Part shown: positions 6,325-34,902 of the stretch, one piece after another
How positions within the stretch are numbered: the stretch's first letter is position 1
Layout of the letters: the number at the start of each line of letters is the position of its first letter
Assembly (NCBI RefSeq): GCF_035946395.1
Contig: NZ_DASYZI010000140.1
Location: forward strand, 29 to 64,028
Length of the DNA stretch: 64,000 nt
Direction: 5' to 3'
Source: Actinocrinis sp.
GTDB lineage: Bacteria > Actinomycetota > Actinomycetes > Streptomycetales > Catenulisporaceae
Translations under genes and position numbers: made by a program
Notes under the pieces: generated by a model
What the model was told of the DNA's origin: nothing
Database searches by the model: none
The model's input: the letters and a program-made list of their open reading frames with translations, nothing else

Positions 6325-9312
6325 CTATTGCGCCGCAATGCCGCCGAGGCCGGGCTCTGACTTGCGCCGCCGCCTGATCCACCACGCCTCGCCTATGACA
6401 ACAGCCACCAGGATCACCGCCGTCCCGGCCGTGAGCGTGTACGCGATGGTTCCGTGCGGTGCGGCGAAGTTCAGGGTGACGGTGTGCGTTCCTGCCGGGA
6501 CCGAGACGGCTACCACGCCCTCGTCGGCGGGGAGCAGTGGTGCCTTCTTGCCGTCCACGGCGGCCGTCCAGCCGACCTGGTCCGCGTCCGCAACTACCAG
6601 ATAGCCCTGGCCGTTCGCGTTCACCGTGGCGGACACGGTGTCGAGGCCGTCCTCGTCCACGTCCACCGAGGCGGGCTGGCCGGCGGCCTGCGGGCCGCCG
6701 CTGGAGAGCAGCACCGAGTCGCCGTCAACCTGCCCGGCGGCGAGCATCTGCACGCGCTGGTTCTGATCGGTGACGACCTGGCTGTTCGACGCCCAGCGGA
6801 TGCGCGGCTGCGCGGTCGTGCGCTGGTAGATCGCGCTGGTGCCCACGTGCACCAGCTTCAGGCCGTCGGCGGCCCCGGCCACCGTGGTCAGCGCCGGAGC
6901 GGCGCCGTTGGTCGCGGCCAGCGTCAGCGGGGCGGTGGCGTGCAGGGTGATCGTCGCGGTCAGCCGGGTGCCGGAGGCCACCGAGTCGGCCGTCACCGGG
7001 AACAGGAACGGGTCGCTCGTGTTCAGCTCGTTGGTCATCCGCTTGGACTGGGCCACCTGCGTCCCGGACGGGTCGCGCAGCGTGACCTGGATCCAGCTGT
7101 CCGGATCGCTGGCGCCCAGGGCGTCGGGGATCGTGCCCTGTGCCGTGATGCCGACGCCGCGCAGCGCCCCGATCGCCGGGACCGGCTCGCTGACCGACTG
7201 CCCGGGGCGCAGGGTGAGCTGGGAGCCGTCGCTCTTCGCCGCGGTCTCGGTGCCCAGGATCGGGTCGCTGAGCGCGGTCACGAAGTACTTCGTGCCGAGC
7301 GTGTCGAGGATCGGGCTGGTGGCCGCGGCGGTCGAAGCGTCGATGTCGATGTAGGTCGCGAACGGCACCGGGTTGCCCGGGATGCCCTTGAGCAGCGCGG
7401 TGAACGCGGTGTTGATGAACGCGTGCCCGTCGACCGAGCGCAGGTCGTATGCCACGTTCGTGCCGAAGACCATTCCGCTGCCGCCCGCCGCGTACCGCTG
7501 CTCGCCGAGGTTCGCGGCCAGATACGAGTGGGTGTCGGTGACCGGGTAGAACGTGTCGGTGCTCGACTTCGGATAGTACTCGGTCAGCAGGTTGATGCTC
7601 TGGCCCGCGATCAGCAGCGGCAGCGCCGCGGCGGCGGCGAAGCGGATCCTGCGCCACGTCCGCTCGCCGCCGGGCAGTTCCCGCCGCCGCGCCGCGATCC
7701 ACAGCAGCGCCACGCAGGCGATCGCGGCCAGGATCAGCAGCCACGAGTAGATCATCTGGTGCCAGAACGTCGGCCACGGCGTGCCCGGGGCGTGCGCCTG
7801 CCTGAGCAGCCGCTGCTCGGTGCGCGAGTCCTTAACGCCGAAGTACATCAGGACCGCGGTGACCCCCGTCGTGACCACCACGACGCCGGCCGCCCAGCGT
7901 GTGCCGGACCGGGACCGGGCCGCCGCGCGGTGCCGCAGCAGCAGTTCGAAGCCGACGCCGGCCAGCACGGCCAGCAGGAAGCCGAGCACGCTGCGGGAGC
8001 GGCCGATGTAGTTGATCGAGAACACGGAGCGCAGTCCCGGCAGGTCCTGCACCGCCACCAGCGGCCAGCCGCCGAGGTAGATCAGCCCGCCCCAGGCCAG
8101 CGTCGCGGCGGCGAAGAAGACCCACACGCCGCGCGGCAGCATCGCGCGCGCCGAGCGCTGCAACGCGAAGGCCACCAGCACCAGGACCGCCGCCGCCGCG
8201 CTGATGTAGCTCAGCGACTCGACGAGGTTGGGGCCGACGTAGGACACCGGCGGGTTGTTCGCGTTGACACCGCCGAAGGCCCAGGGGGCGAACGCGGTCA
8301 GCAGGGTGGTCGGGTCGAGGTGCTGTGCACCGTTCTGCGCACGGCCGTCGGTGTACCAACTGTGCAGGAATGCGGAGAACGGCAGTAGCTGGAACGCGGC
8401 CAGCCCCACGCCCGCCGCCGCGCCCAGGCCGGTGCCGACGAGCGGCCGCCATGCCTTGCGCAGCGTGGAACGGTGCTCGACGGCGATGCGCGTCAGTGCG
8501 TACGCACCCGCGGTCAGTACCGCGTAACCGGCGACTGCGGGGAAGCCGCCGAGCAGCATCGAAGCGAGCGGGAGGGGGATCAGCGCCGCGTCGCGCAGCC
8601 GCCGCTCCTGAAGGTACCGCTCGATCGTCCAGAACAGCGCTGGAATGAAGGCCGCCACCCGGGTCTGCGGGAAGTTCAGCCACGCGACCACGAAGCCGCT
8701 GGTCGCGAACACCATGCCGGCCGTGATCGCGGCTGGACGGGACAGCTTGAGCCGGCGCAGGAACAGGTAGCAGCCGCCGACGCAGACGAGGACCTCAAGC
8801 AGCCGCTCGTAGGCCGGGGCAAGCCACGTCGGCAGCGCGTAATAGACGAGCGAGAGCGGGGAGGCCAGCGCGTAGTTCGGCGTCGAGGCGAGCGGCACGC
8901 CGCCGCTCATGTACGGATCCCACTGGCCGTTGGTCAGGCCGCCCTTGAGCGCCGACTTGTACAGGATGACGCTGGGAAAGAGCGAGGTGTACGTATCGTC
9001 GAGGTATGCGTTGGTTGTCGTGCTCCCGACGAATCCGGACTCGGCGTAAGGACTCTCGCCGACCATCTCGCTGGTCGAGGTCAGGGACGAGGTGCCGATC
9101 AGCGGAGTGCCGATGCCCCAGAGCGCGAACAGCGCCACGGCGAGGAGCGAGACCACGGTCAGCGCGGCCGGCCGCCGCCGTGCGCCGGAGCGGGCCGCCT
9201 GGCCGTCCCCGCTCGCCGCGCCGTCGGGCACCTCGCCCGGACGGCCCTGCACAGCGCTGGGGTTCTCGGTGGTCACGGCGTCGGTTTCCCTGGTCATCTG
9301 TTCCCGTTGCAA
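6325..9312 (-). CDS. YfhO-family polytopic membrane protein (GT-C-type glycosyltransferase)
   Basis: About 995 aa with many TM helices. W.PY...G.P.AS.P in the first loop, a large extracytoplasmic domain, a C-terminal ...GWTA.VDGKKA......V.VPAGTH.V segment and a final TM match the YfhO architecture. Confidence 0.8.
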   Translation of the reverse strand: MQREQMTRETDAVTTENPSAVQGRPGEVPDGAASGDGQAARSGARRRPAALTVVSLLAVALFALWGIGTPLIGTSSLTSTSEMVGESPYAESGFVGSTTTNAYLDDTYTSLFPSVILYKSALKGGLTNGQWDPYMSGGVPLASTPNYALASPLSLVYYALPTWLAPAYERLLEVLVCVGGCYLFLRRLKLSRPAAITAGMVFATSGFVVAWLNFPQTRVAAFIPALFWTIERYLQERRLRDAALIPLPLASMLLGGFPAVAGYAVLTAGAYALTRIAVEHRSTLRKAWRPLVGTGLGAAAGVGLAAFQLLPFSAFLHSWYTDGRAQNGAQHLDPTTLLTAFAPWAFGGVNANNPPVSYVGPNLVESLSYISAAAAVLVLVAFALQRSARAMLPRGVWVFFAAATLAWGGLIYLGGWPLVAVQDLPGLRSVFSINYIGRSRSVLGFLLAVLAGVGFELLLRHRAAARSRSGTRWAAGVVVVTTGVTAVLMYFGVKDSRTEQRLLRQAHAPGTPWPTFWHQMIYSWLLILAAIACVALLWIAARRRELPGGERTWRRIRFAAAAALPLLIAGQSINLLTEYYPKSSTDTFYPVTDTHSYLAANLGEQRYAAGGSGMVFGTNVAYDLRSVDGHAFINTAFTALLKGIPGNPVPFATYIDIDASTAAATSPILDTLGTKYFVTALSDPILGTETAAKSDGSQLTLRPGQSVSEPVPAIGALRGVGITAQGTIPDALGASDPDSWIQVTLRDPSGTQVAQSKRMTNELNTSDPFLFPVTADSVASGTRLTATITLHATAPLTLAATNGAAPALTTVAGAADGLKLVHVGTSAIYQRTTAQPRIRWASNSQVVTDQNQRVQMLAAGQVDGDSVLLSSGGPQAAGQPASVDVDEDGLDTVSATVNANGQGYLVVADADQVGWTAAVDGKKAPLLPADEGVVAVSVPAGTHTVTLNFAAPHGTIAYTLTAGTAVILVAVVIGEAWWIRRRRKSEPGLGGIAAQ

Positions 9313-9488
9313 GTTCGGAAGCGGCGGCGTGCGCGGCCGGGACTGAGCGAAGATAGAGAGCCAGCATGAAGGCTAGCTGAGCCTCTCCTGCCGCAGGGCG
9401 AAGAGTTCCGGCGGGCGCGTGGCCAAACGTTAGCAGCGCTGACTACCCTGGGGACGCCCACGGTCCAACTGGAAGGGAACCTGCACGA

Positions 9489-17300: not shown

Positions 17301-19658
17301 GTGACTGTGCGCAGCGGGCAGGAGCAGGGACGTCCGGCGCACGGCCGCAGACCGGAACGGCGGCTCGACCGGGTTCCGTTCCGGCGCAAGCTCGACGCCC
17401 TGATCGCGCTGCCCGCCGTCGGCATCATCGTGCTGCTCACGCCGCTGGTGACCCAGCAGGTCAACTCGGCCCGCGACTGGGAGAGCGCGGCCTCGTACAT
17501 GAACACCACCGAGCAGGTCAGTACACTGATCAACGACCTGAGCCTTGAGCAGGAGGACGGGCTCGGGGTGATCGGCAGCATCCAGCTCGTCGACATCACC
17601 GCGTACGACCGCGCCATGGAGACCACCGACAAGCAGCGGGTCGTGGTGCTCGCGGCGTACAACGACAACCCGCCGCAGAAGATGCGCGACGCGCTCGACC
17701 AGGTCGGCAAGCTCGCCCACGTGCGCAAGCTGGTACACAGCGGGTCGATCAACGGCACCATCCTGTTGGATTCCTACACGAAGACGATGGGCGACCTCAA
17801 CGGCGCGATCGGCCTGGAGCAGATGGCCTCCGACCCGGTCCCGTCCGCCGTCCCCGCCGCCGAGCTCAACACCCTCTTCGCGACCGACCTCGCCGCCAAC
17901 GAGCGAGAGGCCGCCCTCACCGACATCGCGGACAACCCGACCGAGGCGGCCGTCCAGTACCCGCTGGCCGAACAGTACGACGGCGTGGCCTCCGCGTACG
18001 CCACGTCACTGGAGGGCTTCGTCCCGCACGCCGACTACGTGATGTTCGCGGGCATCCACGACAACTCGCAGCAGGAGACGATCGACCAGTTCGAGGAGAG
18101 CGCCGGCGCGGCGTTCATCTCCGGCGACAAGGTCGCGCTGATCCAGCTGACCGGCTACTCCCGCCAGATCAGCGACGACGTGCTCGCCCAGAGCGATGCG
18201 CGGTCGATCATGGAGCACACCATCACGGACAACGTGGTGAGCCGGGCCGCGCACAGCGCGTCGGTGGCCGCCTGGACCGCCGTCGCGCTGGTCCTGCTGG
18301 CCCTGGCGCTGCTGACCGGCCTGGTCGTGCTGAGCGTGATAATCCGGCACTCGATCGCCCGCCCGGTCCTGAGGCTGACCAGGGCGGCCACCCGCATCGC
18401 CACCGTCGCGGAACAGGATCTCCAGCGGGTCGCCGACGACGATCTCGGGCAGGACGGCGGCGCCCCCGAGTTGGAACACGTCTCGATCGCCACCCGCGAC
18501 GAGATCGGCGACCTGGCCGAGTCGTTCAACCGGCTCCAGGGCACCGCGGTGCGGGTCCTGGAGCGCCAGGTGCTCGTCCGGCGCAACACCGCCGAGATGT
18601 TCGGCAACGTCGGGCGGCGCATCTACAACCTCACCGGCCGCCAGCTCGCGCTCATCGACGCGATGGAGCGCAGCGAGACCGACCCGGTGCTGCTCGAACG
18701 GCTCTACCGCATCGACCACCTCGCGGTGCGCCTGCAACGCGGCGCGGACAGCCTGGTGCTGCTGTCCGGGGAGCGCGAGCCGGCCGTCGACGCGACCCCG
18801 ATGCGGCTGACCGACGTGGTGCGCTCGGCGATCGGCCGGATCGAGGGCTACCAGCGGGTCGTGCTCGGCACCGAGGGCGACTCGATGGTCACCCCGTCCG
18901 CGATCGGCGACCTGACCCTGATGATCGCCGAGCTGGTGGAGAACGCGGTGGCGTTCTCGCCGACCTCCAGCACGGTGGACGTGGCGGTGCGCAGCGCCTC
19001 GCACGGCGCGGTGGTCGAGATCGTGGACCGCGGCGTCGGGATGACGACGCAGCGCCTGATGCAGGAGAATGAGCAACTGGTCCGGCGCGAGCGGCTGGAC
19101 CTGGTTCCCACCAAGGTGCTCGGCCTGTTCGTGGTCGGGCGGCTGGCCCAGCGCACCGGAGCGCAGGTCACGCTGTTGCAGACCGCGGGCGGCGGGCTGA
19201 CCGCCCGGATCGCCGTGTCCGACGAGCTCCTGCTCGGCCCGGTGGAACTGGCGCAGCGCGGTACGGGCGGGTCCGCCCCCGCGCCCCGCACCGTCCCCAC
19301 CCCGCCGATGCCGGAGCAGCGCCGGGACCAGGAGACACCGGTGGCCGCGGGATTGGCGCCGCGTCCGGCGGGCAGGCAGTTGGAGGGATCGATGGCGCAG
19401 CGGCCGCCCACGCTGCCGCGCCGGGTCCGCGGCGCGGGACCCGCACCGCAGACCTCCGCCGCCGGGGGCATCTCGCTCGCCCCGGCGACGCAGCTCGACG
19501 CGGAGGCGGCGCGCGCGGCGATCGAAGAGTTCGAAGCCGGGGTCGACCAGGCGTTGCGCGACAGCGCGCAGGGTCTGCCGATCCAGCCTCCCGGGGCGGA
19601 CGGTGACGTGCCGCCGCCCATGGGGGACACCGACGAGGAGAAGGGAGAGAGGCAATGA
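17301..19658 (+). CDS. Conservon sensor histidine kinase (CvnA-like): TM, extracellular sensor, TM, HAMP, kinase
   Basis: RDEIGDLAESFN (HAMP), LYRIDHLAVR (phospho-His region), ELVENAVAFS (N box), DRGVGM (G1) and Pro-rich tail. Confidence 0.9.
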   Translation: MTVRSGQEQGRPAHGRRPERRLDRVPFRRKLDALIALPAVGIIVLLTPLVTQQVNSARDWESAASYMNTTEQVSTLINDLSLEQEDGLGVIGSIQLVDITAYDRAMETTDKQRVVVLAAYNDNPPQKMRDALDQVGKLAHVRKLVHSGSINGTILLDSYTKTMGDLNGAIGLEQMASDPVPSAVPAAELNTLFATDLAANEREAALTDIADNPTEAAVQYPLAEQYDGVASAYATSLEGFVPHADYVMFAGIHDNSQQETIDQFEESAGAAFISGDKVALIQLTGYSRQISDDVLAQSDARSIMEHTITDNVVSRAAHSASVAAWTAVALVLLALALLTGLVVLSVIIRHSIARPVLRLTRAATRIATVAEQDLQRVADDDLGQDGGAPELEHVSIATRDEIGDLAESFNRLQGTAVRVLERQVLVRRNTAEMFGNVGRRIYNLTGRQLALIDAMERSETDPVLLERLYRIDHLAVRLQRGADSLVLLSGEREPAVDATPMRLTDVVRSAIGRIEGYQRVVLGTEGDSMVTPSAIGDLTLMIAELVENAVAFSPTSSTVDVAVRSASHGAVVEIVDRGVGMTTQRLMQENEQLVRRERLDLVPTKVLGLFVVGRLAQRTGAQVTLLQTAGGGLTARIAVSDELLLGPVELAQRGTGGSAPAPRTVPTPPMPEQRRDQETPVAAGLAPRPAGRQLEGSMAQRPPTLPRRVRGAGPAPQTSAAGGISLAPATQLDAEAARAAIEEFEAGVDQALRDSAQGLPIQPPGADGDVPPPMGDTDEEKGERQ

Positions 19659-20113
19659 CCGCCTCCACCACCGACGCGGACGGCATTCGTGCCGCGGCCG
19701 CCGATTTCACCTGGATGGTCAGCCGCTTCGCCGCGGAGACCGCGGGCGTGGTCGACGCGATAGCGGTCTCCTCCGACGGACTGCTCATAGCCGTGTCCCG
19801 ACCGGGGGACCAGGCCGACTCCGAGCGGCTGGCCGCCATCGTCTCGGGCATCACCAGCCTCGCGATGGGGGCTGCGGGCAACTACGGGCTCGGCGCGCTC
19901 AACAAGGTCATCATCGACATGGCGGGCGGCCACCTGCTGGTCTCCTCTATTGGCAGCGGCTCGGTGCTCGGCGTGGTCGCCTCGAAGGACGCCAAGCTCG
20001 GCAACGTCGCGTACGAGATGACCCTGTTCGCCAACCGGGTCGGCACCATCCTGAGCCCGGCGCTGATCGTGGAGTTGAAGAACACCGTCGGCGCCGCCGG
20101 AGCGACGGGGTGA
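19655..20113 (+). CDS. Roadblock/LC7 protein (CvnB-like)
   Basis: AIAVSSDGLL and LAAIVSGITSL motifs; ATGA overlap with the kinase gene. Confidence 0.92.
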   Translation: MTASTTDADGIRAAAADFTWMVSRFAAETAGVVDAIAVSSDGLLIAVSRPGDQADSERLAAIVSGITSLAMGAAGNYGLGALNKVIIDMAGGHLLVSSIGSGSVLGVVASKDAKLGNVAYEMTLFANRVGTILSPALIVELKNTVGAAGATG

Positions 20114-20556
20114 GCAAGCAGGGCGGGCGGCAGCAGAACCCGGCGGGCCCGGCGGCGGGGCGCGACGGGGCGCCGCAGGGCGCCGGCGCGGATCGCGCCT
20201 CGGCGGTCCGCCCGTTCATGGTCACCGACGGCCGGGTCGCCGCCGAGGCGGGCCTGCCGGTCGAGACGCAGGTGGTGGCGACCGCCGAGGGACTCGGGAA
20301 GATCGGCGCGCTGGCCTTCGAGCGGCGCGCGATCGTCGAGGCCTGCGGCGCCCCGCTGTCCCTGGCCGAGGTGGCCGTCAAGCTTCGACTGCATCTCAAC
20401 GTGGTCCGGGTGCTCGCGGGGGACCTCCGGGCCGGCCAGTTCCTGGCGGTGCACGTGCCGCGTGCCGGCACGGCATCGGACATCGACGTACTGCGAAGGG
20501 TGATCGATGGACTCCGCGCCATCCCCACTTCCGTCGGCTCACGGGATGCCGACTGA
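20110..20556 (+). CDS. DUF742 protein (CvnC-like)
   Basis: GTGA overlap with cvnB; VRPFMVTDGR and SLAEVAVKLRLHLNVVRVL.GDL motifs. Confidence 0.88.
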   Translation: MSKQGGRQQNPAGPAAGRDGAPQGAGADRASAVRPFMVTDGRVAAEAGLPVETQVVATAEGLGKIGALAFERRAIVEACGAPLSLAEVAVKLRLHLNVVRVLAGDLRAGQFLAVHVPRAGTASDIDVLRRVIDGLRAIPTSVGSRDAD

Positions 20557-21139
20557 GGTGTACACAGAGACGGTGCCGGCCACGCGACCGCCGCTGCCGG
20601 TCAAGATGGTCGTCGCCGGCGGCTTCGGGGTCGGCAAGACCACGGCCGTCGCCTCGGTCTCCGAGATCGAGCCGCTGACCACCGAGGCCTCGATCACCGA
20701 GGTCGCCTCCGGCGTCGACGACGTCTCGCTGACCCCGAACAAGACCACCACCACGGTGGCGATGGACTTCGGCTGCCTCACGCTCGACCCGACGCTCAAG
20801 CTGTACCTGTTCGGCACGCCGGGCCAGGACCGCTTCGGCTTCATGTGGGACGACGTGACCGAGGGCGCGCTCGGCGCCCTGGTCGTGGTGGACAGCCGGC
20901 GCCTGGACGACTGCTTCCCCGCGGTGGACTACTTCGAGCGCAAGGGCATGCCGTTCGCCGTCGCGGTCAACACGTTCGACGGTGAACTCACCCACCCGAT
21001 CGACGCGGTACGCGAGGCACTGGATGTGGTCGACGAGGTACCGGTTATCTCATTCGACGCGAGGGACCAAGGCTCGGTACGCGATTCACTGGTCGTGGTG
21101 CTTGAGCACGCTTTGGCGCGAGCAGTCGCCGCCGCATGA
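20546..21139 (+). CDS. Small ATP/GTP-binding protein (CvnD-like)
   Basis: GGFGVGKTT (G1), TTVAMDFG (G2), GTPGQDRF (G3) and AVNTFD (G4). Confidence 0.93.
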   Translation: MPTEVYTETVPATRPPLPVKMVVAGGFGVGKTTAVASVSEIEPLTTEASITEVASGVDDVSLTPNKTTTTVAMDFGCLTLDPTLKLYLFGTPGQDRFGFMWDDVTEGALGALVVVDSRRLDDCFPAVDYFERKGMPFAVAVNTFDGELTHPIDAVREALDVVDEVPVISFDARDQGSVRDSLVVVLEHALARAVAAA

Positions 21140-24004: not shown

Positions 24005-25549
24005 ATGTTGAATATGGAACTCGCCGCCTCGCACCGCCGGCCGCTGCCCAACTCCGAACTGCTCGGTCCGGTCGATCCCGACGAGCACATCCAGGTCTCG
24101 CTTTATCTGCGGCGCCGACAGAACCTGCCCGCCGACGTGGCGGCCGGCCGGCTCCGGCTGACCCGCGACGAGTTGCGCACCCGCTACGGCGCGCACCCCG
24201 ACGACGTCGAGCACGTCCGCGAAGCCCTGGTACGGCACGGCATCGAGGTCGTCGAGGCGGACCCCGGCGCGCGCCGCATGGTGCTTGCGGGAGCTGTGTC
24301 AGCCTTCTGCGAAGCGTTCGGCACCGCGGTCTCCCGGGTGCGCACGGCGCACCCGCAGGCCCCGGACGGCGTGGCCCACCGCTACCGCACCGGGCCGCTG
24401 AACCTGCCGAACGCGCTGTCCGGTGTGGTCACCGCCGTGCTCGGGATCGACGACCGGCCACAGGCGCGCGCGCACTTCCGCTTCGCCGCCGCCGCGAGCG
24501 CCGCGACCTCGTACACGCCGGTGCAGGTCGGCACGGCCTACGGCTTCCCGGCCGGCTTCGACGGCTCGGGCCAGATCCTGGCGATCATCGAGCTCGGCGG
24601 CGGCTTCGCGCAGGGCGACCTCGACACGTACTTCGGCGGCCTGGGCCTGGCGACCCCCGCGGTGACCGCCGTTGCGGTGGACGGCGGCGCGAACAGCCCC
24701 ACCGGCGACCCGAACGGCCCGGACGGCGAGGTCCTGCTCGACATCGAGGTCGCCGGCGCGCTGGCCCCCGGCGCGGGCCAGGCGGTGTACTTCGCGCCGA
24801 ACACCGACCAGGGCTTCGTGGACGCGGTGGCCGCCGCCGCGCACGCCACCCCCGCCCCGGCCGCCATCTCGATCAGCTGGGGCGGCCCGGAGGACTCGTG
24901 GACCGCGCAGGCCCGCGACGCGCTCGACCAGGCCTGCGCCGACGCCGTGGCGCTCGGCGTGACGGTCCTGGCCGCCTCCGGCGACAACGGTTCGAGCGAC
25001 AACGCGCCGGACGGCGCGCCGCACTGCGACTTCCCGGCCTCCAGCCCGCACGTCCTCGGCTGCGGCGGCACCCGGCTGACCGTCGACGCGGCCGCATGGA
25101 ACGAAACCGTGTGGAACGAAACCGTGTGGAACGACGGCACCGGCGGCGGCGCGACCGGCGGCGGCGTCTCCACCGTCTTCCCGGCTCCGGACTGGCAGAC
25201 CAACGCCGGCGTCCCGTCCTCGGGCCGCGGGGTGCCTGATGTCGCGGGCAACGCGGACCCGCAGACCGGTTATCAGATCTACGTTGACGGCCAAGAGGGG
25301 GTCGTCGGCGGCACGAGCGCGGTGGCCCCGCTCTGGGCCGCGCTGGTGTGCCGCTTGGCGCAGCGGGCCGGCAAGCCGCTCGGCCTGCTCCAGCCGACGC
25401 TCTACGCGAATGTCGCCCCAGGCGTCGCGCAGCCCGGATTCCACGACATCACGCATGGCAACAACGGGGCGTATCGCGCAGGACCGGGCTGGGACGCGTG
25501 CACCGGCCTCGGCACCCCGGACGGTGGGACGCTCCAGGCTTTGTTCTGA
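24005..25549 (+). CDS. S53 (kumamolisin/sedolisin-like) serine-carboxyl peptidase with pro-domain
   Basis: GEVLLDIEV (Glu/Asp), SISWGG, ASGDNG, GGTSAVAP (catalytic Ser) and GWDACTGLGTP. Confidence 0.93.
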   Translation: MLNMELAASHRRPLPNSELLGPVDPDEHIQVSLYLRRRQNLPADVAAGRLRLTRDELRTRYGAHPDDVEHVREALVRHGIEVVEADPGARRMVLAGAVSAFCEAFGTAVSRVRTAHPQAPDGVAHRYRTGPLNLPNALSGVVTAVLGIDDRPQARAHFRFAAAASAATSYTPVQVGTAYGFPAGFDGSGQILAIIELGGGFAQGDLDTYFGGLGLATPAVTAVAVDGGANSPTGDPNGPDGEVLLDIEVAGALAPGAGQAVYFAPNTDQGFVDAVAAAAHATPAPAAISISWGGPEDSWTAQARDALDQACADAVALGVTVLAASGDNGSSDNAPDGAPHCDFPASSPHVLGCGGTRLTVDAAAWNETVWNETVWNDGTGGGATGGGVSTVFPAPDWQTNAGVPSSGRGVPDVAGNADPQTGYQIYVDGQEGVVGGTSAVAPLWAALVCRLAQRAGKPLGLLQPTLYANVAPGVAQPGFHDITHGNNGAYRAGPGWDACTGLGTPDGGTLQALF

Positions 25550-25610: not shown

Positions 25611-26534
25611 ATGCGCGAACTGGTGGTGCTCGGCACGGCGAGCCAGGTCCCGACCCGCACCCGGAACCACAACGGCTACTTCCTGCGCTGGGACGACGAG
25701 GGTTTCCTGTTCGACCCCGGCGAGGGTACGCAGCGGCAGATGACGTTGGCGGGCGTCTCGGCGTCCGACGTTGACCGGATCTGCGTCACGCACTTCCACG
25801 GCGACCACTGCTTCGGCCTGCCCGGTGTCCTGGCCAGGGTCGCGCTCGACAACGTCGATCACCCGGTGCACTGCCACTATCCGGCGTCCGGACGAGAAGC
25901 CTTCGCGCGGCTGGCCTGGCGGTTCCCTGATCCGGACATGATGCTGCCCGGGGATCGCATCGAAGGGCCCGCAGAGGGGGAGCGGGCCGTCCTGGCCGAC
26001 GAGCGCTTCGGCCGGCTGAGCGCGGTCCGCCTGGACCACGGCATCGATGCCTACGGCTACCGCCTCACCGAACCGCGGGTGCTACGCATGCTGCCCGAAC
26101 AGTTGGCGGCGCGAGGCATCAGCGGTCCGGCAGTCGGTCGGCTTCAGCGAGAGGGCACGATCGAGCATGGCGTCCGGACCGTCACCCTCGGCGAAGTGAG
26201 TGTCATGCGTCCGGGCCAGGCCGTTGCGTTCGTCATGGACACGCGGTTGTGCGACGGCGTCTACGAACTGGCCGAAGGCGTGGACCTGCTCATCATCGAG
26301 TCGACGTTCCTGGCCGCGGACACCGCGCTCGCCGCCGCGTACGGCCATCTGACCGCGGGCCAAGCCGCGCGCGTCGCCGCCGAATGCGGGGTGCGCACGC
26401 TGGTGCTCACCCACTTCTCCCAGCGCTACCAGGACTCTGCCGCGTTCGAACTCGAAGCACGGGAGCACTTCGACGGCGAGCTTTACGTCGCCGAGGATCT
26501 AATGCGCGTGCCGGTACCCAAGCGCCGTGCGTAA
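25611..26534 (+). CDS. rnz: Ribonuclease Z
   Basis: [32 protein letters not shown] and HLTA...LTHFSQRY motifs. Confidence 0.93.
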
Positions 26535-26538
26535 AGCC

Positions 26539-27630
26539 TCAGTGCACCGGTGCGGACGCGCGTAACCCGGTCGCCAGGGGCAGGGTGTGCGCGAAGGCCA
26601 GATGATGCCGCCGGTCGCAGAACTCGACGAATCCGTCCCGCTCCTCCGCCGCGGCGTGCGTCGCGACCCGGGCGAGTTCGACCTCGGCCGCGTCGTGCCC
26701 GGAGACCGTCACATAACCGGCGATGGCCGGGCCGCGATCCTGCGGCGGGCCGGCCATGCCCACCACCACCGAGGTCGCGCCGCTCACCCCGGGCGGCAGG
26801 AAGGCCGAGCACGCGGCCGCGTCGAGGCCGCCGACGCCGCGCGGCCAGCGCTTGACCCAGCTGGTGGCGTGCCACCAGCTGGACAGCTGCCGCGGGCCGA
26901 CCAGCCCGGTGATCGCCACCGACCGGGGCGCGGTGGCGTCCACCTCGGTCGGCTGCCACGCGTTCTCGCCGGGGCGCGGGCCTATCGCGCCGCGGCCGGG
27001 CAGGATGAGCGCGCCGAGCAGCGCGGTCACCGCGTTGCGGTCCAGCGGCACCAGCGGGCCCAGCCGCGCGCCGCCGGTGCCGTTCGCGCTCAGCCGGGCG
27101 AAGACCTCACCGGCCGCCTGCGCCGCGATCGCGGTCAGCCCGCGCTCGCCCTGCGCGAACCGGGTCGCTTGGCTCACCAGTTCGGCCGTGTACGCAAACC
27201 CCGCGACAGCGTACGCGCGGGTACGCCCCGCCGGACCCGGTACCTGGCACAGCAGCTGAAGCCGGGTCAGCGGGACCGGGCTGGAGCCGGCGGCGACCAG
27301 CATCTCGCCGAGGCGTGCGCCGAGATCCCCGGCCTCGGGACCGCGCATCACCGCGGGGGAGATCTCGGCGACCGCCAGGATCGTGCCCGCGCCGCCGTGC
27401 AGGAACAGCGCCGGGTCTCGCGAGCCGGTGGGCGCCGGAAGCCAGTGCAGGCCGCCGATGCCGAAGGGCTCGGGGCGCCGGGCGGTCCACTTGGGCAGGT
27501 GCAGCAGATGCGAACGGGTGCGCCGGCGCCGGATCCACAGCGTGAAACCGCCGGGTGCGGGTCCCGGGGTGATCGCGGACCTGGCCGCGGGCCGGGCCAC
27601 CGTGTCCCGGTGCTGGGTCTGCGGGTTCAT
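26539..27630 (-). CDS. Type VII secretion EccE-like protein lacking the N-terminal TM helices
   Basis: Collinear similarity, recalled from memory, to actinomycete EccE: LQLLCQV, WHATSWVKRWP, GYVTVSG and a terminal HTLPLATG. Confidence 0.6.
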   Translation of the reverse strand: MNPQTQHRDTVARPAARSAITPGPAPGGFTLWIRRRRTRSHLLHLPKWTARRPEPFGIGGLHWLPAPTGSRDPALFLHGGAGTILAVAEISPAVMRGPEAGDLGARLGEMLVAAGSSPVPLTRLQLLCQVPGPAGRTRAYAVAGFAYTAELVSQATRFAQGERGLTAIAAQAAGEVFARLSANGTGGARLGPLVPLDRNAVTALLGALILPGRGAIGPRPGENAWQPTEVDATAPRSVAITGLVGPRQLSSWWHATSWVKRWPRGVGGLDAAACSAFLPPGVSGATSVVVGMAGPPQDRGPAIAGYVTVSGHDAAEVELARVATHAAAEERDGFVEFCDRRHHLAFAHTLPLATGLRASAPVH

Positions 27631-27924
27631 GGTGCCCCGCCCGAGCGGCCGCCGAGGCACGATGAGCGAGTTTGTGGCGCCACGTGCGCAGTGTCGCACA
27701 GCCTCGGGGCACCTCGCAGGCGACCTGCCGCGCCGGGTCGCGCCGAGGTCACGCTCGGCTGACGTCTTGTCTGCCCAGCGTAGCGCTGGTAACTTGCGGA
27801 TCGGTGCTCTGCGATGGCCGGTATCGGCCGCCGCCGGGCCCGGGAAAGTCCGTGTCCCAGGGGGAGCAGGCGGCACGTCGGCTCCGCCGCCGCCAGCAGC
27901 CCTCGCTCGTGTAGGGGGAGGACG

Positions 27925-30852
27925 ATGCGTGTGCCGGACCGATCGGCCAAGCGGTCGGAACGGTCGATCCTCGCCGCGCTCGCGGCCTGGGTCCTGCTCG
28001 CGGTTCTCGTCCTCGGCGTCCCGCTCGGCCTCGCGTACCTCATCGGCTGGCCGCTGAGCGGCGTACACGTCCCGCTCGGCCTGCCGCACCGGCCTTGGAC
28101 GGCGCACACGCTGTTCCGCGTCGCGATGTTCGTGATCTGGCTGCTGTGGGCGCAGTTCGCCGCCAGCGTGATCGTGGAGTTCCGCTCCGCGCTGACAGGG
28201 ATCGAAATACCTACGCGGATACCCGGCGCGGCGCTGAGCCGGACCGCGGCGCGTGCGATCGTCGCCGTCGCGTTGACGGCTTCCGTGGCGGGCGCCACGG
28301 TGACTGCCGCGTCCGCGCGCCCCGTGGCCGCGGTGAGCATCGACGTCGGCGGCGTTCGGGCCCACCTCCCGCAGCAGGCGAGCGGACCCCTGGCCAGAAC
28401 ACCGCAACCCGTGGCGCAGGCGCAGACCAGGCAGCCTGCCGTCCTGACCGACTTAGCCGGCCCGCACGTCGCCTCGAACACGGTTGCAACGAACACGGTT
28501 GCAACGAACACAGAGGCCGCCGCGATGGCGACCCTGAAGTACTACGTCGTCGAGCCGCCGGGCGGGCGGCGCCACGATTCCCTCTGGGATATCGCCCAGC
28601 GCTATCTCGGCGACGGGCGCCGGTACCGTGAGATCTTCGCCCTCAACGTCGGCCGCTTGCAGCCCGACGGCACGCAGCTTCAGCACGCGAGCCTGATCCG
28701 GCCCGGCTGGGTGCTCGTGCTGCCCTCCGACGCGCAGGGCCCGGGACTCAGCGTGCAGCTGCCCGCGAGCGCCTCCGCGTCGACACCCTCGCCCCAGTTG
28801 CCGCAAACGTCGCTGCCGCCGATCCAGTCCACGCCCGTGCACGATCCCACCACGTCCGCCACACAGACGAACGGCGACGGTGAAGCGCCGAAGACCTATG
28901 CGATGCCAGGTTCGCAGAACGGGACGAACCCGGCCACCGTGACCCCTGGCTCGGGCGCCATCCCGCACCCCGTCGCCTCGCGTCCCGCGTTGCCGCACGA
29001 GCAACCGGCCGGACCGCACTCCTCGGACGGCTCGGTCCTGCATTCGATCAGCGACGTGCTGCCGTACGTCGGGCTGATCGGGTCGCCGGTGCTCGCCGCC
29101 GCGCTGCTGGCCGGACTGACCGCCGCGGCCCGGCGCCGCCGCCGCGACCACCCGGCCGCGACGATCGCCGCCCCGCCGGACCCGGCCATCGCCGAGGTCG
29201 AGCGCACCATCCGTGCCGCAGCCTCCTGCGACACCATCGACTTGGTCGAGCGGGCGATGCGTGCGCTGCGCGGCGGGTGCGAGGTCGAGGGCCGAGTGCC
29301 GCCGGACCTGCGTTACGTGCGCACCGACCCGGACGGCCTCTACCTCGTGCTCGGCCGACCGGACACGCGGGCCCCCGCGCCGTGGTCGGTGCTCGCCGGT
29401 GACCAGCAGTGGCGCTTCGACAGCGAGGCGCCGCTCCCGGACGAGCCGACGCGCCACGCCGTGCCGTATCCGCTGCTGCTCGCGGTCGGCTCGCTCGGCG
29501 AGGAGCAGATCCTGGTCAACCTGGAGGCCTCCGCCGGCCGCTGCACCGCCGTCACCGGACCCAGCCGGCAGCGCCGTGCCGTGCTGGCCGCCGCCGCGGC
29601 GACCCTGGCCGCCGCGCCGTGGGCCGACCAGATCCGGATCGAGGCGGTCGGCCTGCCCGCAGAACTCGCCCTGCTCGCGCCGGAGCGGCTGCGCGTGCAT
29701 CCCGACCTGCCCGCGGCGCTCGGCGCCCTTGAGGAGCAGGCCGCCGCCACCAGCCCGCACCTGGTCCGCCTGCTGATCGCGGAGAGCGTCGCGCCGGAGG
29801 ATGCCGACCGGCTCAGGGTCCTGACGGCTGGGGCGGACGGCAGCACCGCGGCGCTGGTCGGCACGGAGCAACCGTGGCCCGACTTCACCGTTCTGACCGT
29901 GGACCCGGTCGGCAGGCTGCGCGTTCCCGGCGTCCCCGGCGACCTGACAGCCGCCCGGCTGCCCGACGCGCTGGCCGCCGCACTCGGCGCCCTCTTCCGC
30001 GTTGCCGCCGCGCCGCGCTACGCGCCCGCGTTCCGGCCCGCCGACGCGGAGGCGTTCGGCGGCGCAGACCTGGCCGATCAGCCGGTGGGAGTACGCGCGC
30101 GCATCCTCGGGCCCGTCGAGCTGACCGGCGTCGGCCCGGCCGACGCGGCGCGTGGACCGCTGTTCACCGAGGCGCTGGTGCTGCTGCTGTTCCACCGCGC
30201 CGGGCTGCCGGCGCCGGTGTTCGCCCGCGCGCTGTGGCCGCGCGGAATCACCCCGGCGGCGCGCGACCGGATGCTGCGTGACATGCGCGACTGGCTCGGC
30301 GAGGGCGTCGACGGCCCGCGCCTGACCGTCGCTCAGGACGGGCTGGTGCGCCTGACCGACGACGTGCGCGCCGACTGGGAGGAGTTCCAGGCCGCCTACC
30401 GGGACGCAGGGCGCTTGGCCGACGGTGCAGCACACTGGGACGCAGCCGAGGCGGCTCTCGTCCGCGCGCTTCACCTGGTGCGCGGCGAACTGCTGGCCGA
30501 TCGGCCGGCGGGCCGGTACTCCTGGCTCGGATTCGGCACGCAGGAGACCGAGGTCCCCGCCGTCATCGCCGACGCCGCGTACCGCCTGGCGGCGCAGCGG
30601 CTCGCCCGCGGCGACGCCGCCGGCGCGCAGTGGGCTGCGGAGAAGGGCCTGCTCGGCGCCCCCGACGACGAGCGGCTGGTGCAGATCAAGATCCGCGGCA
30701 TCGCGGCGCAGGGCGACCGGGAGCGGCTGCACGACGTCATCGCCGACCTCAAGGTGCGCGCGTGGTACCGCCACGGCGAGACCGACCTGCACCCGAGCAC
30801 CAGCGCCGTCGTGACAGAGCTCTTCGAAGGACTCCAGGGCCTGCGCGCATGA
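27925..30852 (+). CDS. Membrane protein with extracellular LysM domain and cytoplasmic C-terminal BTAD domain
   Basis: GGAGG RBS and ATG at 27925; N-terminal TM helices; DSLWDIAQRYLGDGRRY.EIF.LN...LIRPGW.L.LP (LysM); Pro/Thr linker; TM followed by RRRRR; ARILGPVEL and AL.LVRG.LL....Y.W (SARP/BTAD-type). Confidence 0.85.
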   Translation: MRVPDRSAKRSERSILAALAAWVLLAVLVLGVPLGLAYLIGWPLSGVHVPLGLPHRPWTAHTLFRVAMFVIWLLWAQFAASVIVEFRSALTGIEIPTRIPGAALSRTAARAIVAVALTASVAGATVTAASARPVAAVSIDVGGVRAHLPQQASGPLARTPQPVAQAQTRQPAVLTDLAGPHVASNTVATNTVATNTEAAAMATLKYYVVEPPGGRRHDSLWDIAQRYLGDGRRYREIFALNVGRLQPDGTQLQHASLIRPGWVLVLPSDAQGPGLSVQLPASASASTPSPQLPQTSLPPIQSTPVHDPTTSATQTNGDGEAPKTYAMPGSQNGTNPATVTPGSGAIPHPVASRPALPHEQPAGPHSSDGSVLHSISDVLPYVGLIGSPVLAAALLAGLTAAARRRRRDHPAATIAAPPDPAIAEVERTIRAAASCDTIDLVERAMRALRGGCEVEGRVPPDLRYVRTDPDGLYLVLGRPDTRAPAPWSVLAGDQQWRFDSEAPLPDEPTRHAVPYPLLLAVGSLGEEQILVNLEASAGRCTAVTGPSRQRRAVLAAAAATLAAAPWADQIRIEAVGLPAELALLAPERLRVHPDLPAALGALEEQAAATSPHLVRLLIAESVAPEDADRLRVLTAGADGSTAALVGTEQPWPDFTVLTVDPVGRLRVPGVPGDLTAARLPDALAAALGALFRVAAAPRYAPAFRPADAEAFGGADLADQPVGVRARILGPVELTGVGPADAARGPLFTEALVLLLFHRAGLPAPVFARALWPRGITPAARDRMLRDMRDWLGEGVDGPRLTVAQDGLVRLTDDVRADWEEFQAAYRDAGRLADGAAHWDAAEAALVRALHLVRGELLADRPAGRYSWLGFGTQETEVPAVIADAAYRLAAQRLARGDAAGAQWAAEKGLLGAPDDERLVQIKIRGIAAQGDRERLHDVIADLKVRAWYRHGETDLHPSTSAVVTELFEGLQGLRA

Positions 30853-30888
30853 GGGGCCTGATGAGAATGAGAAGCCTGAGGAGCCGCT

Positions 30889-31902
30889 GTGGTCAGTTCC
30901 GCTAGGGCGAACCCGCCCGCCGGCGGCCCGGCGGGCGGCGCGTTGGTGCTGCCGCCCGACCGGCGGCTCGTGGTGCCCGTCCTGTCCGGCAGCGGCGGCG
31001 TCGGCCGCACGACGGTCGCCGCGCTGCTCGCCGCCACCCTGCACCGGCACACCGTCGGCGCGCTCGGCGACACGCGCGGGAGCGCCGTGCTCGACTGCGC
31101 CGCACGCGGCCACACGCCGTGGCCCGCATGGGTGACGACCCCGGCGTCCTCGGGCACCGGCACGCTCGCCGGATACCGGGGTTCGGCGGCCGGCGCGGAT
31201 GCCGACCTGGCGGAGCTCACCGACGCGGCGACGTCACACCTCGCCGTGGCCACGCACAGCCCGCTGTGGGTGCTCACCGACACCGGGCCGGCGTCAGGGT
31301 CCTACCTCGGCGGCGATCCCGGCCCGCGCTGGTGGCTGCCGGTCCTGCCGTCGCTGCGCGTGGCGGTCGTGGACGGCGACGCGCTCGAAGGCGCGCGCTT
31401 GGCCGCGCAGACGGTCGGCGGGCCGCTCTCCACGATCGGATCGTGGTTCGCGACACCGTTCCTCAACACCGCCGCCGTCTGGGTGACCGACACCGGTGAG
31501 GCGTCGCTTCAGCGCACCATCGACGCCCTGACATGCATCGCGGAAGTCCGCCTGCCCGCAGACCGCATCGTGGTCGCGATCACCGACCGTCGTGGCGTAC
31601 GCCGTCGCGGCGGCAGCTCCCTGCCGGAGAGCTGGCACGACCTGATCGCGGGCCGGGTCGGCGCCCTCGTCGACCTCGGCCACGACCGTACGCTCGACGA
31701 CCAGGGCGGCTGCCCGTCGCTCGACGCCGCCGCACTGGACCGCCCTGAAGTGGTCGAACTGGCCCGCGCCGTGGCCGTCGCGGCGCGCCTGCACTGGATC
31801 CCGGAGGGCGAGCCCGCCGTCTACGACCCGGCCAACAGCGTCCCTGCGTCCGACCTGACCGAACTGATGCTGCGTCAGGCGGGCCGCGCCGCGCTGCGGT
31901 AA
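30889..31902 (+). CDS. MinD/ParA-like P-loop protein with deviant Walker A
   Basis: VPVLSGSGGVGRTTVAALLA at the N-terminus; AVVDGD; terminal ...DLGHDRTL...L..LA.AV, as in the MinD fold. Confidence 0.65.
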   Translation: MVSSARANPPAGGPAGGALVLPPDRRLVVPVLSGSGGVGRTTVAALLAATLHRHTVGALGDTRGSAVLDCAARGHTPWPAWVTTPASSGTGTLAGYRGSAAGADADLAELTDAATSHLAVATHSPLWVLTDTGPASGSYLGGDPGPRWWLPVLPSLRVAVVDGDALEGARLAAQTVGGPLSTIGSWFATPFLNTAAVWVTDTGEASLQRTIDALTCIAEVRLPADRIVVAITDRRGVRRRGGSSLPESWHDLIAGRVGALVDLGHDRTLDDQGGCPSLDAAALDRPEVVELARAVAVAARLHWIPEGEPAVYDPANSVPASDLTELMLRQAGRAALR

Positions 31903-31945: not shown

Positions 31946-32902
31946 TCACCTTCTCGCGAAGTCGGCGAGTGCTTCTTCGAGCACGCGGGCCATCGTCGTG
32001 CTCCCGGTGTGGCCGGAGTCCTCGACGACGACGAGACGGGCGTCCGGCCACGCCTGAGCCAGTTCCCAGGCGGTGCCGATCGGGCTGCCCATGTCGAGGC
32101 GGCCGTGCACCAGCAGCCCGGGGATGCCCGCGAGGCGGTCGGCGTTGCGCAGCAGCACGCCCTCTTCCAGCCACGCGGCGTGCGAGAAGTAGTGCGCGCA
32201 GATGCGCACGAACGCGAGTTTCGCGGTGTCGGGGCGGTCGCTGTACGCGTTCGGCTTGCCGTTCGGCTCTGCCGAGATGACTGCGTCCTCCCAGGCGAGC
32301 CAGCTGTTCGCCGCTTTGGCGCGCGTGTCGGGATCCGGGTGCTCCATTAGCCGCGCGTACGCGGCCACGAGGTCGCCGCCCCGCTCGGCCTCCGGCACGC
32401 CCGCACGGAAGCGGTCCCACGCCTCGGGAAAGAACCGGCCGACGCCCCGGTAGAGCCAGTCGACCTCCGAGCGGCGCGTGGTCGTGACGGCCGTGATGAT
32501 GATCTCCGAAACGCGCTCCGGGTGCCGCTCGGCGTACGCGAGGATCAGCGTCGAGCCCCACGAGCCGCCGTTCAGCAGCCAGCGCTCGACACCCAGGTGC
32601 GTGCGCAACAGTTCCATGTCCGCGAGCAGATGCTCCGTCGTGTTCACGCTCATGTCCGTCGCCGGGTCGCTCGTGTGCGGGGTGCTGCGTCCGCAGCCGC
32701 GCTGATCGAAGACGATGACGCGGCAGCGCTCCAGATCCCACCCCGACGGCCGTCCGGGCGCGAACCCGCTGCCGGGGCCGCCGTGCACCTTGAGCACCGG
32801 TTTACCGCTGGGATTGCCCCAGGCCTCCCAGTACACGCGGTTGCCGTCGCCGACGTCGAGCATCCCGTGCTCGTTCGGCCGCTCGGAGTCGTTCTCGGTC
32901 AT
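31946..32902 (-). CDS. pip: Proline iminopeptidase
   Basis: VHGGPG, FDQRGCGRS, GGSWGS (nucleophile), HGRLD and GH motifs. Confidence 0.93.
   Translation of the reverse strand: MTENDSERPNEHGMLDVGDGNRVYWEAWGNPSGKPVLKVHGGPGSGFAPGRPSGWDLERCRVIVFDQRGCGRSTPHTSDPATDMSVNTTEHLLADMELLRTHLGVERWLLNGGSWGSTLILAYAERHPERVSEIIITAVTTTRRSEVDWLYRGVGRFFPEAWDRFRAGVPEAERGGDLVAAYARLMEHPDPDTRAKAANSWLAWEDAVISAEPNGKPNAYSDRPDTAKLAFVRICAHYFSHAAWLEEGVLLRNADRLAGIPGLLVHGRLDMGSPIGTAWELAQAWPDARLVVVEDSGHTGSTTMARVLEEALADFARR

Positions 32903-32976: not shown

Positions 32977-34902
<1,926 letters not shown>

Follow-up and report, generated by a model that had tools for sequence, protein, structure and literature searches.

Three neighbouring genes occupy positions 26539-31902 of a 64,000-nucleotide stretch of Actinocrinis sp. 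DNA (contig NZ_DASYZI010000140.1, C140 in our numbering of the assembly; the whole stretch is called the window below). ORF1 (26539-27630, minus strand) encodes 363 residues, ORF2 (27925-30852, plus strand) 975 residues and ORF3 (30889-31902, plus strand) 337 residues. We favour, with confidence that stays just short of even, a reading in which this trio is a regulatory module: ORF2 would be a membrane-tethered activator of the SARP type, its ATPase-like domain would be an inactive platform that is gated or positioned by ORF1 and ORF3, and the unit would regulate at least itself. The evidence for such a module comes from the architecture of ORF2, the selection acting on its individual domains, the conserved loss of catalytic motifs in the trio, the strict synteny of the three genes, ratios of nonsynonymous to synonymous substitution rates (dN/dS) resembling those of the flanking genes, and conserved blocks in the intergenic region.

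In the proposed mechanism ORF2 would be the central component. Its LysM domain would bind peptidoglycan outside the cell, and inside the cell its dead EccC/FtsK-like domain would act as a platform for oligomerisation or docking. ORF1 and ORF3 would be cytoplasmic partners sitting on this platform, where they would set the activity or the position of the SARP output. The first likely target would be the module's own conserved divergent promoter, and the Tad, type IV-like or type VII loci on other contigs might be further targets. The trio would thus represent a lineage-specific module of three proteins borrowed from the gene sets of envelope machines, with the features of transport and ATP hydrolysis lost.

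The AlphaFold (AF2) model of ORF2, built on 23 sequences, shows three N-terminal transmembrane helices (residues 7-125), a predicted LysM domain on the outside of the membrane (28516-28728, plus strand; residues about 198-268, with a beta-alpha-alpha-beta fold) and a fourth transmembrane helix (residues 388-408). These are followed in the cytoplasm by a helical stalk (residues 420-454), a beta subdomain with an alpha/beta domain (residues 462-695) and a SARP module (30091-30846, plus strand), which consists of an OmpR-type winged helix (residues 723-816) and a BTAD helical bundle (residues 817-974). The fourth transmembrane helix, the stalk and the FtsK/EccC-DUF-like alpha/beta domain, whose P-loop is degenerate, together span 29053-30009 (plus strand, residues 377-695). 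The predicted local distance difference test score (pLDDT) is 85-90 for the cytoplasmic domains and 80-90 for the LysM fold. Membrane segments were scored by the 19-residue Kyte-Doolittle maximum, which gave four hydrophobic segments in ORF2 (residues 11-45, 62-86, 108-131 and 377-402) and maxima of 1.37 for ORF1 and 1.32 for ORF3, with no hydrophobic segment in either. The absence of a transmembrane segment from ORF1, stated in the original prediction made from the DNA letters, is borne out by this value.

Pfam and NCBIfam scans of the trio were nearly empty, and family labels needed deeper tools. On ORF2 the Pfam LysM model (PF01476) scored below threshold (E 0.035, 14.5 bits with a cut-off of 20.9), NCBIfam PRK11198 matched the LysM region at 3e-4, and the Pfam model was matched in 5 of 10 aligned relatives (orthologues and paralogues), with a best E of 1e-6. 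A Foldseek search with the last 260 residues of ORF2 returned the SARP domain of AfsR (8hvr_I, E 1.9e-6, TM-score 0.65) and EmbR (2fez, 3e-5). In two Tad-linked paralogues that align over the C-terminal region of ORF2, Pfam BTAD (PF03704) was matched at 4.8e-8. ORF2 therefore shares the winged-helix and BTAD fold of SARP regulators (AfsR, PDB 8HVR and 8K60; EmbR, PDB 2FEZ), and its C-terminus keeps the pattern LGP.E...ALWP, which we take to be a SARP pattern. Whereas the module is N-terminal in soluble SARPs, in ORF2 it is C-terminal and membrane-tethered behind the pseudo-ATPase domain.

With the middle part of ORF2, Foldseek found 6umm_E (E 3e-4), the FtsK motor 2ius (1.3e-3) and the EccC5 DUF 8rin_B (1.5e-3); the identity of chain 6umm_E was checked, and it corresponds to residues 1-403 of EccC3, the N-terminal part with transmembrane helices, stalk and DUF. 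A profile search of the PDB sequences with ORF2 gave no relative. The fold shared with the N-terminal part of EccC (transmembrane helices, stalk and DUF) and with the FtsK motor covers residues ~380-700. EccC has four such domains, including the D1-D3 motor, whereas ORF2 has a single one with degenerate Walker motifs: the P-loop position reads GPSRQRRA instead of GxxGxGK[ST] and the Walker B position LLIAES instead of hhhhDE. This degeneracy is kept in the ORF2 orthologues and in the Tad-linked paralogues, with G545, R550 and R551 invariant. Because both motifs are degenerate in a conserved manner, the alpha/beta domain is very probably not an ATPase. These features bear directly on the idea that ORF2 is a working FtsK/TraB-like translocase for DNA or protein, with ORF1 and ORF3 as helpers in a minimal secretion or DNA-transfer device. 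The order of transmembrane helices, wall-binding domain, FtsK-like fold and winged helix parallels that of FtsK and Streptomyces TraB, and it would speak for such a device together with the fold matches to the FtsK motor and EccC. However, ORF2, its orthologues and the Tad-linked paralogues all lack the lysine of Walker A and the aspartate of Walker B, there is a single ATPase-like domain whose best match is the degenerate DUF domain of EccC and not an active motor, and ORF3 lacks its lysines as well. We consider a working translocase very improbable.

The closest paralogue of ORF2 ends the genome's own Tad locus, in agreement with the original prediction, which had described ORF2 as a LysM/transmembrane/BTAD protein of a kind that usually accompanies Tad loci. 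From end to end, ORF2 can be aligned with this 1301-residue product (C271:18417-22322) at 33-38% identity, and equally with the last genes of Catenulispora Tad loci. In the C271 locus the LysM/BTAD gene is preceded by cpaB-, tadZ-, tadA-, tadB- and tadC-like genes and by three tadE-like genes, so that the Tad-linked paralogue of ORF2 shares an operon with a degenerate ParA-like (TadZ-like) protein. The proteins that end Tad operons have the transmembrane topology, predicted LysM domain, pseudo-ATPase and SARP module in common with ORF2, together with many invariant columns. A gene encoding LysM and BTAD domains (PAGK_2369) has also been tabulated after three tadE genes on a Cutibacterium acnes plasmid (PMC3666418). 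As modelled, ORF2 belongs to this uncharacterised Tad-linked LysM/pseudo-FtsK/SARP family and agrees with the structural definition of a SARP; a literature search found no paper on the function of the family. Its position sets ORF2 apart from these relatives: it lies outside a Tad operon, with a ParA-like gene of type IV lineage behind it and ORF1 pointing away from it. An origin of the ORF2-ORF3 adjacency as an old Tad/type IV operon junction on a conjugative element was considered and rejected, as the genes that follow Tad-linked LysM/SARP genes in the own genome and in Catenulispora are unrelated to ORF3.

Orthologues of ORF1 occur in five genera of the family of Actinocrinis, while Catenulispora and Streptomyces hold only the full-length SCO6880 paralogue. 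Those of ORF2 and ORF3 occur in only three of the five genera, in every case as neighbours and with ORF1 on the same contig in divergent orientation. The order of the trio is identical in nine genomes with intact contigs, which belong to three GTDB genera and include the cultured Actinocrinis puniceicyclus DSM 45618, at protein identities of 55-83%. ORF2 is full-length and free of stop codons in the nine genomes, and in several genomes the ORF2 and ORF3 frames, by our own calling of open reading frames, overlap by 8 nucleotides. Pairwise Nei-Gojobori (NG86) medians of dN/dS, which are rough at 90% third-position GC, were 0.275 for ORF1, 0.38 for ORF2 and 0.278 for ORF3, compared with 0.21-0.26 for four flanking genes. 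Within ORF2 the values were 0.14 for the LysM domain, 0.14 for the fourth transmembrane helix, 0.22 for the pseudo-ATPase, 0.23 for the winged helix and 0.25 for BTAD, with relaxed values of 0.62-0.67 in the outside linkers. Purifying selection acts on all folded domains of ORF2. As a unit the trio is conserved, with the same gene order in nine genomes, and the decay with dN/dS near 1 that the original prediction had named as the mark of a relic was not seen.

The same data were weighed against the idea that there is no module at all, the three genes being remnants of a mobile element or of duplications that were each kept on their own, adjacent by chance and with functions that are unrelated, or minor though still under selection. 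This idea fits the three different origins of the parts and the case of Actinospica, where ORF1 occupies the same neighbourhood but ORF2 and ORF3 are missing. It also fits the narrow spread of the family, which is restricted to a single small clade and forms only 4 clusters (50% identity) in a set of 1.84 billion representatives. Against it stands the finding that in all nine genomes ORF2 and ORF3 occur together and point away from ORF1, with proteins 55-83% identical; all genes, moreover, are intact with dN/dS well below 1, and the shared intergenic region is the most conserved DNA of the locus. Chance adjacency thus appears distinctly unlikely. In Actinospica the ORF1 homologue (L004:10001-11179) stands alone between an alpha-amylase gene and an MHYT/NIT-kinase conservon/pro-kumamolisin neighbourhood, that is, in the same wider neighbourhood as in the window. 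Because this homologue is solitary at the same position, ORF2, ORF3 and the adjoining hydrolase gene were either gained in the Actinocrinis lineage or lost in Actinospica.

The divergent intergenic region between ORF1 and ORF2 measures 294 bp and includes two blocks whose conservation exceeds that of the adjoining intergenic DNA and of the coding start of ORF1. Block A (27668-27701), with a mean pairwise identity of 0.87 in the nine genomes, contains the palindrome GTGGCGCCAC and an inverted repeat, GTGCG..CGCAC, and may be the promoter or operator of ORF1, with GCGACA-17-CAAACT as candidate elements on the minus strand. Block B (27749-27816, plus strand) reaches a mean pairwise identity of 0.92 (minimum 0.76), compared with 0.48-0.66 for neighbouring intergenic DNA in the same genomes, and holds a putative sigma-70-type promoter of ORF2-ORF3. 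Its hexamers, TTGTCT (27767-27772) and TAACTT (27790-27795), are separated by a 17-nucleotide spacer and were read by eye, and the putative first transcribed bases are invariant. Directly before this putative promoter lie the direct repeats TCACG (27750) and TGACG (27761), 11 nucleotides apart. SARPs bind direct repeats at their target promoters and activate transcription, and direct repeats spaced by 11 nucleotides before a promoter are the geometry used by activators of the OmpR/SARP type. Autoregulation by the SARP module of ORF2 would be consistent with this arrangement. The ORF2 start codon (ATG at 27925) is preceded by the ribosome-binding site GGGGGAGGA.

Two further observations concern this region. 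A 14-nucleotide insertion at 27733-27746, absent from eight other Actinocrinis genomes, adds a third repeat with 11-nucleotide spacing (GTCGCG / GTCACG / CTGACG) upstream of the putative -35 element. Just upstream of the Actinospica ORF1 homologue, the sequence CTGTGCsACACTGCG resembles block A, the match being weak (E 0.16). A riboswitch or small RNA in the conserved blocks was considered and rejected, as the blocks matched no Rfam family and conservation is poor in the leader that runs from promoter to ribosome-binding site.

ORF1 is a soluble protein with the conserved motifs WWHATSWVKRWP and EFCDRRHHLAFAHTLPLATGL, in which a nucleotide-binding motif and a membrane anchor are both absent. 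No Pfam or NCBIfam model matched it at E 1 or better, PF11203 and NF042935 included; a profile search of the PDB sequences gave no relative, and its homologues P0115 and P0072 had no NCBIfam match either. In word-based and exhaustive searches its orthologues, all annotated as hypothetical, were confined to Actinocrinis and Actinospica. The next proteins after them, in a profile search of the 1.84 billion representatives, were SCO6880-family proteins of ~500 residues, with E down to 5e-30. The own genome holds a paralogue found by tblastn (C175:14459-15982; 507 residues), with a score of 180 bits on NF042935 and a membrane hairpin at its N-terminus; an hmmsearch of the own genome with the ORF1 profile reached 1.8e-42. 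The paralogue is followed by an ATPase gene to which VirB4 models align in their C-terminal half only, and the pair is of the CmdC/CmdB type of Streptomyces coelicolor. In that species the cmdABCDEF cluster, which includes CmdC (SCO4128) and CmdB, affects sporulation and antibiotic production (PMC2782261).

Comparison of family alignments by hhalign placed ORF1 next to SCO6880 (P 9.6e-38 over 302 columns, probability 99.9%, aligned to SCO6880 residues 115-506) and, at greater distance, next to the Streptomycetales EccE family (P 2e-9 and 1.3e-8, 271 columns, probability 95.6-96.3%). A Foldseek search with the AlphaFold model of ORF1 (pLDDT 72) returned TrwK/VirB4 of R388 first (E 1.5e-7, probability 1.0, TM-score ~0.5 normalised to the query), followed at E 2e-3 by two ESX-3 chains (285 and 241 residues) that are, to judge by their size, presumably EccE3; a sequence check did not confirm this for 6umm_A. 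On the basis of the hhalign comparisons and this search, we place ORF1 in the EccE/SCO6880 superfamily as a member without membrane anchor, with a fold like that of the VirB4 N-terminal domain and with SCO6880 as its nearest relative. The label EccE-like given to it by the original prediction holds at the superfamily level only: ORF1 is homologous to the cytoplasmic domain of EccE (P ~1e-8 to 2e-9) and far closer to SCO6880/CmdC (P 1e-37).

With SCO6880/CmdC (NF042935), ORF1 shares the motifs WxHATxW..WP and E(F/W)CDR.HH.AF..TLP. It lacks the N-terminal VirB3/PrgI-like pair of membrane helices and the two internal insertions of that family, and it also lacks its neighbours, namely a VirB4-like ATPase gene directly downstream and VirB6-like or pilin-like genes before. 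With EccE (PF11203; PDB 6UMM, 6SGW and 7B9F) it has the cytoplasmic domain, the motif WH(T/A)xxW..P and the C-terminal TLPLG in common; the two N-terminal transmembrane helices of EccE, which form the region modelled by PF11203, and the ecc-locus context are both missing, and PF11203 fails on ORF1 because the membrane helices are absent. The N-terminal domain of VirB4 (TrwK, R388) is the best structural match, with no detectable sequence similarity. ORF1, however, stands alone as a soluble protein that neither carries an ATPase domain nor adjoins one. On a metagenome contig (L060:2-997 and 1406-2536), a distant homologue of ORF1 without transmembrane segment, P0115 (E 7e-59 to the family profile), adjoins an Rpf-LysM-M23 wall hydrolase gene.

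The comparison was extended to the superfamily, with the own-genome members C175:14459-15982, C439:29127-30674 and C167:8260-9420 considered together with ORF1 (26539-27630). The SCO6880 and EccE families align by hhalign at P 1e-23 over 364 columns, the two membrane helices included, and the Pfam EccE model scored above its cut-off on a protein of a type IV operon. Given these two results and the ORF1 model, which matched VirB4 and then ESX-3, EccE, SCO6880/CmdC and the N-terminal domain of VirB4 appear to form one superfamily. No paper linking EccE with VirB3 or VirB4 was found in a literature search. In the paper on the ESX-3 structure the fold of EccE3 was described as weakly glycosyltransferase-like (PMC6986878). 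The statistics of these comparisons support a shared ancestry for EccE, SCO6880/CmdC and the N-terminal region of VirB4, which bears on the relationship between type VII and type IV secretion.

A bolder form of the module, which we regard as doubtful, would make the trio a signalling device of a kind not described before, exapted from dead parts of secretion machines. ORF2 would then form a pseudo-FtsK/EccC ring or platform held to the wall by LysM, the SARP would be gated by ORF1 and ORF3, and the status of the cell wall or of an envelope machine would be coupled directly to transcription, free of phosphorylation; its corollary would be a single superfamily of EccE, SCO6880/CmdC and the VirB3-VirB4 N-terminal domain.

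ORF3 is a soluble protein with a P-loop resembling the ParA/MinD/Mrp type, with SGSGGVGRTT at the Walker A position and a conserved (S/T)PWPxW motif. Pfam ParA (PF10609) matched it over residues 28-54 only, at E 1e-3 and 18.8 bits with a cut-off of 27.1. All 15 family members (15/15) matched over the same ~27 residues, with a best E of 2.4e-5. A profile search of the PDB sequences likewise aligned P-loop stretches only, in MinD and Mrp structures at E 2e-3 to 0.2, and no significant similarity to any ParA was seen beyond ~30 residues. The deviant Walker A motif xKGGxGK[ST] of ParA and MinD is absent: the signature lysine is missing and the P-loop lysine is replaced by an invariant arginine, giving the consensus GGVGR[ST], with S33, G36, G37, G39 and R40 invariant in 15 sequences. 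ORF3 thus has in common with the ParA/MinD/Mrp ATPases, which include the positioning proteins TadZ and VirC1, a beta-strand, the P-loop and the start of a helix, and, judged by eye, the ParA-like order of the later D-containing strands, and it differs from them in lacking both Walker A lysines. The designation MinD-like in the original prediction applies to the Walker A stretch, which is of ParA/MinD/Mrp type, and goes no further than that stretch, in which both lysines are replaced.

No paralogue of ORF3 was found in its own genome, and a derivation from the genome's TadZ-like family or from the type VII-adjacent ParA-like protein was rejected, as hhalign finds no similarity beyond the P-loop. 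The relatives of ORF3 point elsewhere. P0114, with 44% identity to ORF3, is translationally coupled into an operon that encodes pilin-like and VirB6-like proteins, a 512-residue protein of the SCO6880/EccE type, a VirB4-like ATPase and an NlpC/P60 hydrolase, and that is homologous to the type IV locus of the own genome (C439:27574-33464). In a sample of 201 genomes of the class, two weaker relatives carry GGSGRST and GGAGAST at the P-loop and keep SPWPxW, and both lie directly before the pilin-like first gene of a type IV operon. Since distant relatives head conjugative type IV operons, ORF3 is assigned by sequence to a lysine-less ParA-like family of type IV lineage, with a fold assignment that covers the P-loop stretch only. 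Members of this family (GG[VSA]G[RA]ST together with SPWPxW) lie at L059:437-1384, L062:1432-2355 and L063:1420-2379, and in 3/3 distant cases the gene directly precedes the pilin-like first gene of an actinobacterial type IV operon of the conjugative type. In the present genome ORF3 is its sole member, and it does not lie beside a type IV operon.

The genome encodes envelope machines that could be served by the trio. A complete type VII locus is present on contig C167, with eccE at 8260-9420 accompanied by eccB, mycP, eccC and eccD, as the original prediction had anticipated in suggesting a type VII system elsewhere in the host. Further machines are a type IV-like system of the Cmd type (C175/C335), a conjugative type IV system (C439) and a Tad pilus (C271). 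The claim that the parts of the trio are specifically associated with type VII secretion was not upheld: ORF1 is nearer to SCO6880/CmdC, ORF2 comes from Tad loci and the relatives of ORF3 head conjugative type IV operons. Going by these sequence relationships, type IV and Tad lineages, and not type VII, are the main source of the parts. Some additional genes were noted at these loci. Directly downstream of eccE, a small gene (C167:7379-7942) encodes what by eye looks like another degenerate FtsK-like domain, and an intact ParA-like gene (KGGVGKTT; C167:4239-5132) lies beside the type VII locus. The CmdB-type VirB4-like ATPase genes at C175:15986-17311 and C335:19592-21178 are ~90% identical by eye, each after an SCO6880-type gene at a contig end; either the genome has two Cmd-like loci, or the assembly shows strain heterogeneity.

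With these machines in view, the trio might instead consist of assembly or positioning accessories acting in trans on one of them (Cmd-type C175/C335, conjugative C439, Tad C271 or type VII C167). ORF2 would then be a wall anchor, ORF3 a positioning factor in the manner of TadZ or VirC1, and ORF1 a cap or regulator of an ATPase of the VirB4 or EccC class, while the SARP fold would bind protein. All four machines exist in this genome, the nearest relatives of the three proteins lie inside such machines (SCO6880 for ORF1, the last gene of Tad loci for ORF2 (PMC3666418), the head of type IV operons for ORF3), and ORF1 alone persists in Actinospica, which has these machines. Nevertheless, the trio lies next to such a machine in 0/9 genomes, and its phyletic pattern tracks no single machine, with SCO6880 and Tad loci present in Catenulispora and Streptomyces, which lack the trio. 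The winged helix, moreover, keeps the SARP pattern and is constrained like the rest of the protein, which would be unexpected for a mere scaffold. We regard accessories acting in trans as the main rival reading, though a rather unlikely one.

The regulatory module itself has to be weighed against several results. Pfam BTAD gave no match on ORF2 itself, and a profile search of the PDB sequences with its C-terminus found no SARP, so that the SARP label derives from the fold and the paralogues. The consensus promoter scan did not flag the hexamers of block B, which is why they, like the repeats, were read by eye, and a genome-wide search for further copies of the intergenic motifs gave chance-level matches only, block B occurring once in the genome. 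Actinospica and one further genus have ORF1 but neither ORF2 nor ORF3; ORF1 must therefore have a function that does not need them, and the trio is not obligatory. Finally, EccE3 in ESX-3 touches EccD3 and not EccC3 (PMC6986878), so the type VII analogy predicts no contact between ORF1 and ORF2. An EccE-EccC contact was for this reason rejected as a template for ORF1-ORF2, EccE3 contacting only EccD3 in that structure (PMC6986878). All of these count against the module. For a pairing of ORF1 with the ORF2 platform there is a precedent of another kind: the parent family SCO6880/CmdC is always encoded beside an ATPase corresponding to the C-terminal half of VirB4, as seen in PMC2782261 and in the loci of the own genome, and this offers a model for combining the ORF1 fold with a domain of the FtsK/VirB4 class. 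The presence of a degenerate ParA-like protein in the operons of the Tad-linked ORF2 paralogues likewise speaks for the module.

None of the three proteins is recovered by family membership tests for EccE, SCO6880, ParA/MinD or FtsK, and their combination is not a known system. If the regulatory module is real, it would show inactivated components of three envelope machines (type IV, type VII-like and Tad) being reused by bacteria as a free-standing regulatory device. The trio would also offer a compact, genetically isolated version of the large LysM/pseudo-FtsK/SARP family found at the end of Tad operons throughout Actinomycetota. With no pilus genes to interfere, the family's partners could be identified here, and Actinocrinis puniceicyclus DSM 45618 is a cultured carrier.

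The host assembly comprises 6.7 Mb at 70-75% GC, and its closest relatives are Actinocrinis genomes. Third-position GC contents of 0.92, 0.90 and 0.91 identify ORF1, ORF2 and ORF3, respectively, as coding; the upstream extension of the ORF1 frame (27631-28407, giving an extended frame of 622 residues) has a value of 0.71 and is non-coding. By tblastn with the genome's own core proteins, no homologue of EccB, EccC, EccD, MycP or of the Tad or type IV cores was found in the window, and no WXG100 gene was found within it. Lacking genes for a core membrane channel and an active ATPase, the locus is not a type VII, type IV or Tad secretion system as such. At every point that could be checked, the description in the original prediction (three genes, their lengths, the flanks and the absent secretion core) was right. 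The flank downstream of ORF1 is a gene with a metallo-beta-lactamase fold (RNase Z-like, 25611-26534), and the flank on the ORF3 side is an alpha/beta-hydrolase gene of family S33 (proline iminopeptidase-like, 31946-32902). Farther out, the window contains a conservon (17301-21139), a pro-kumamolisin gene (24005-25549) and an amylase gene (33151-34902).

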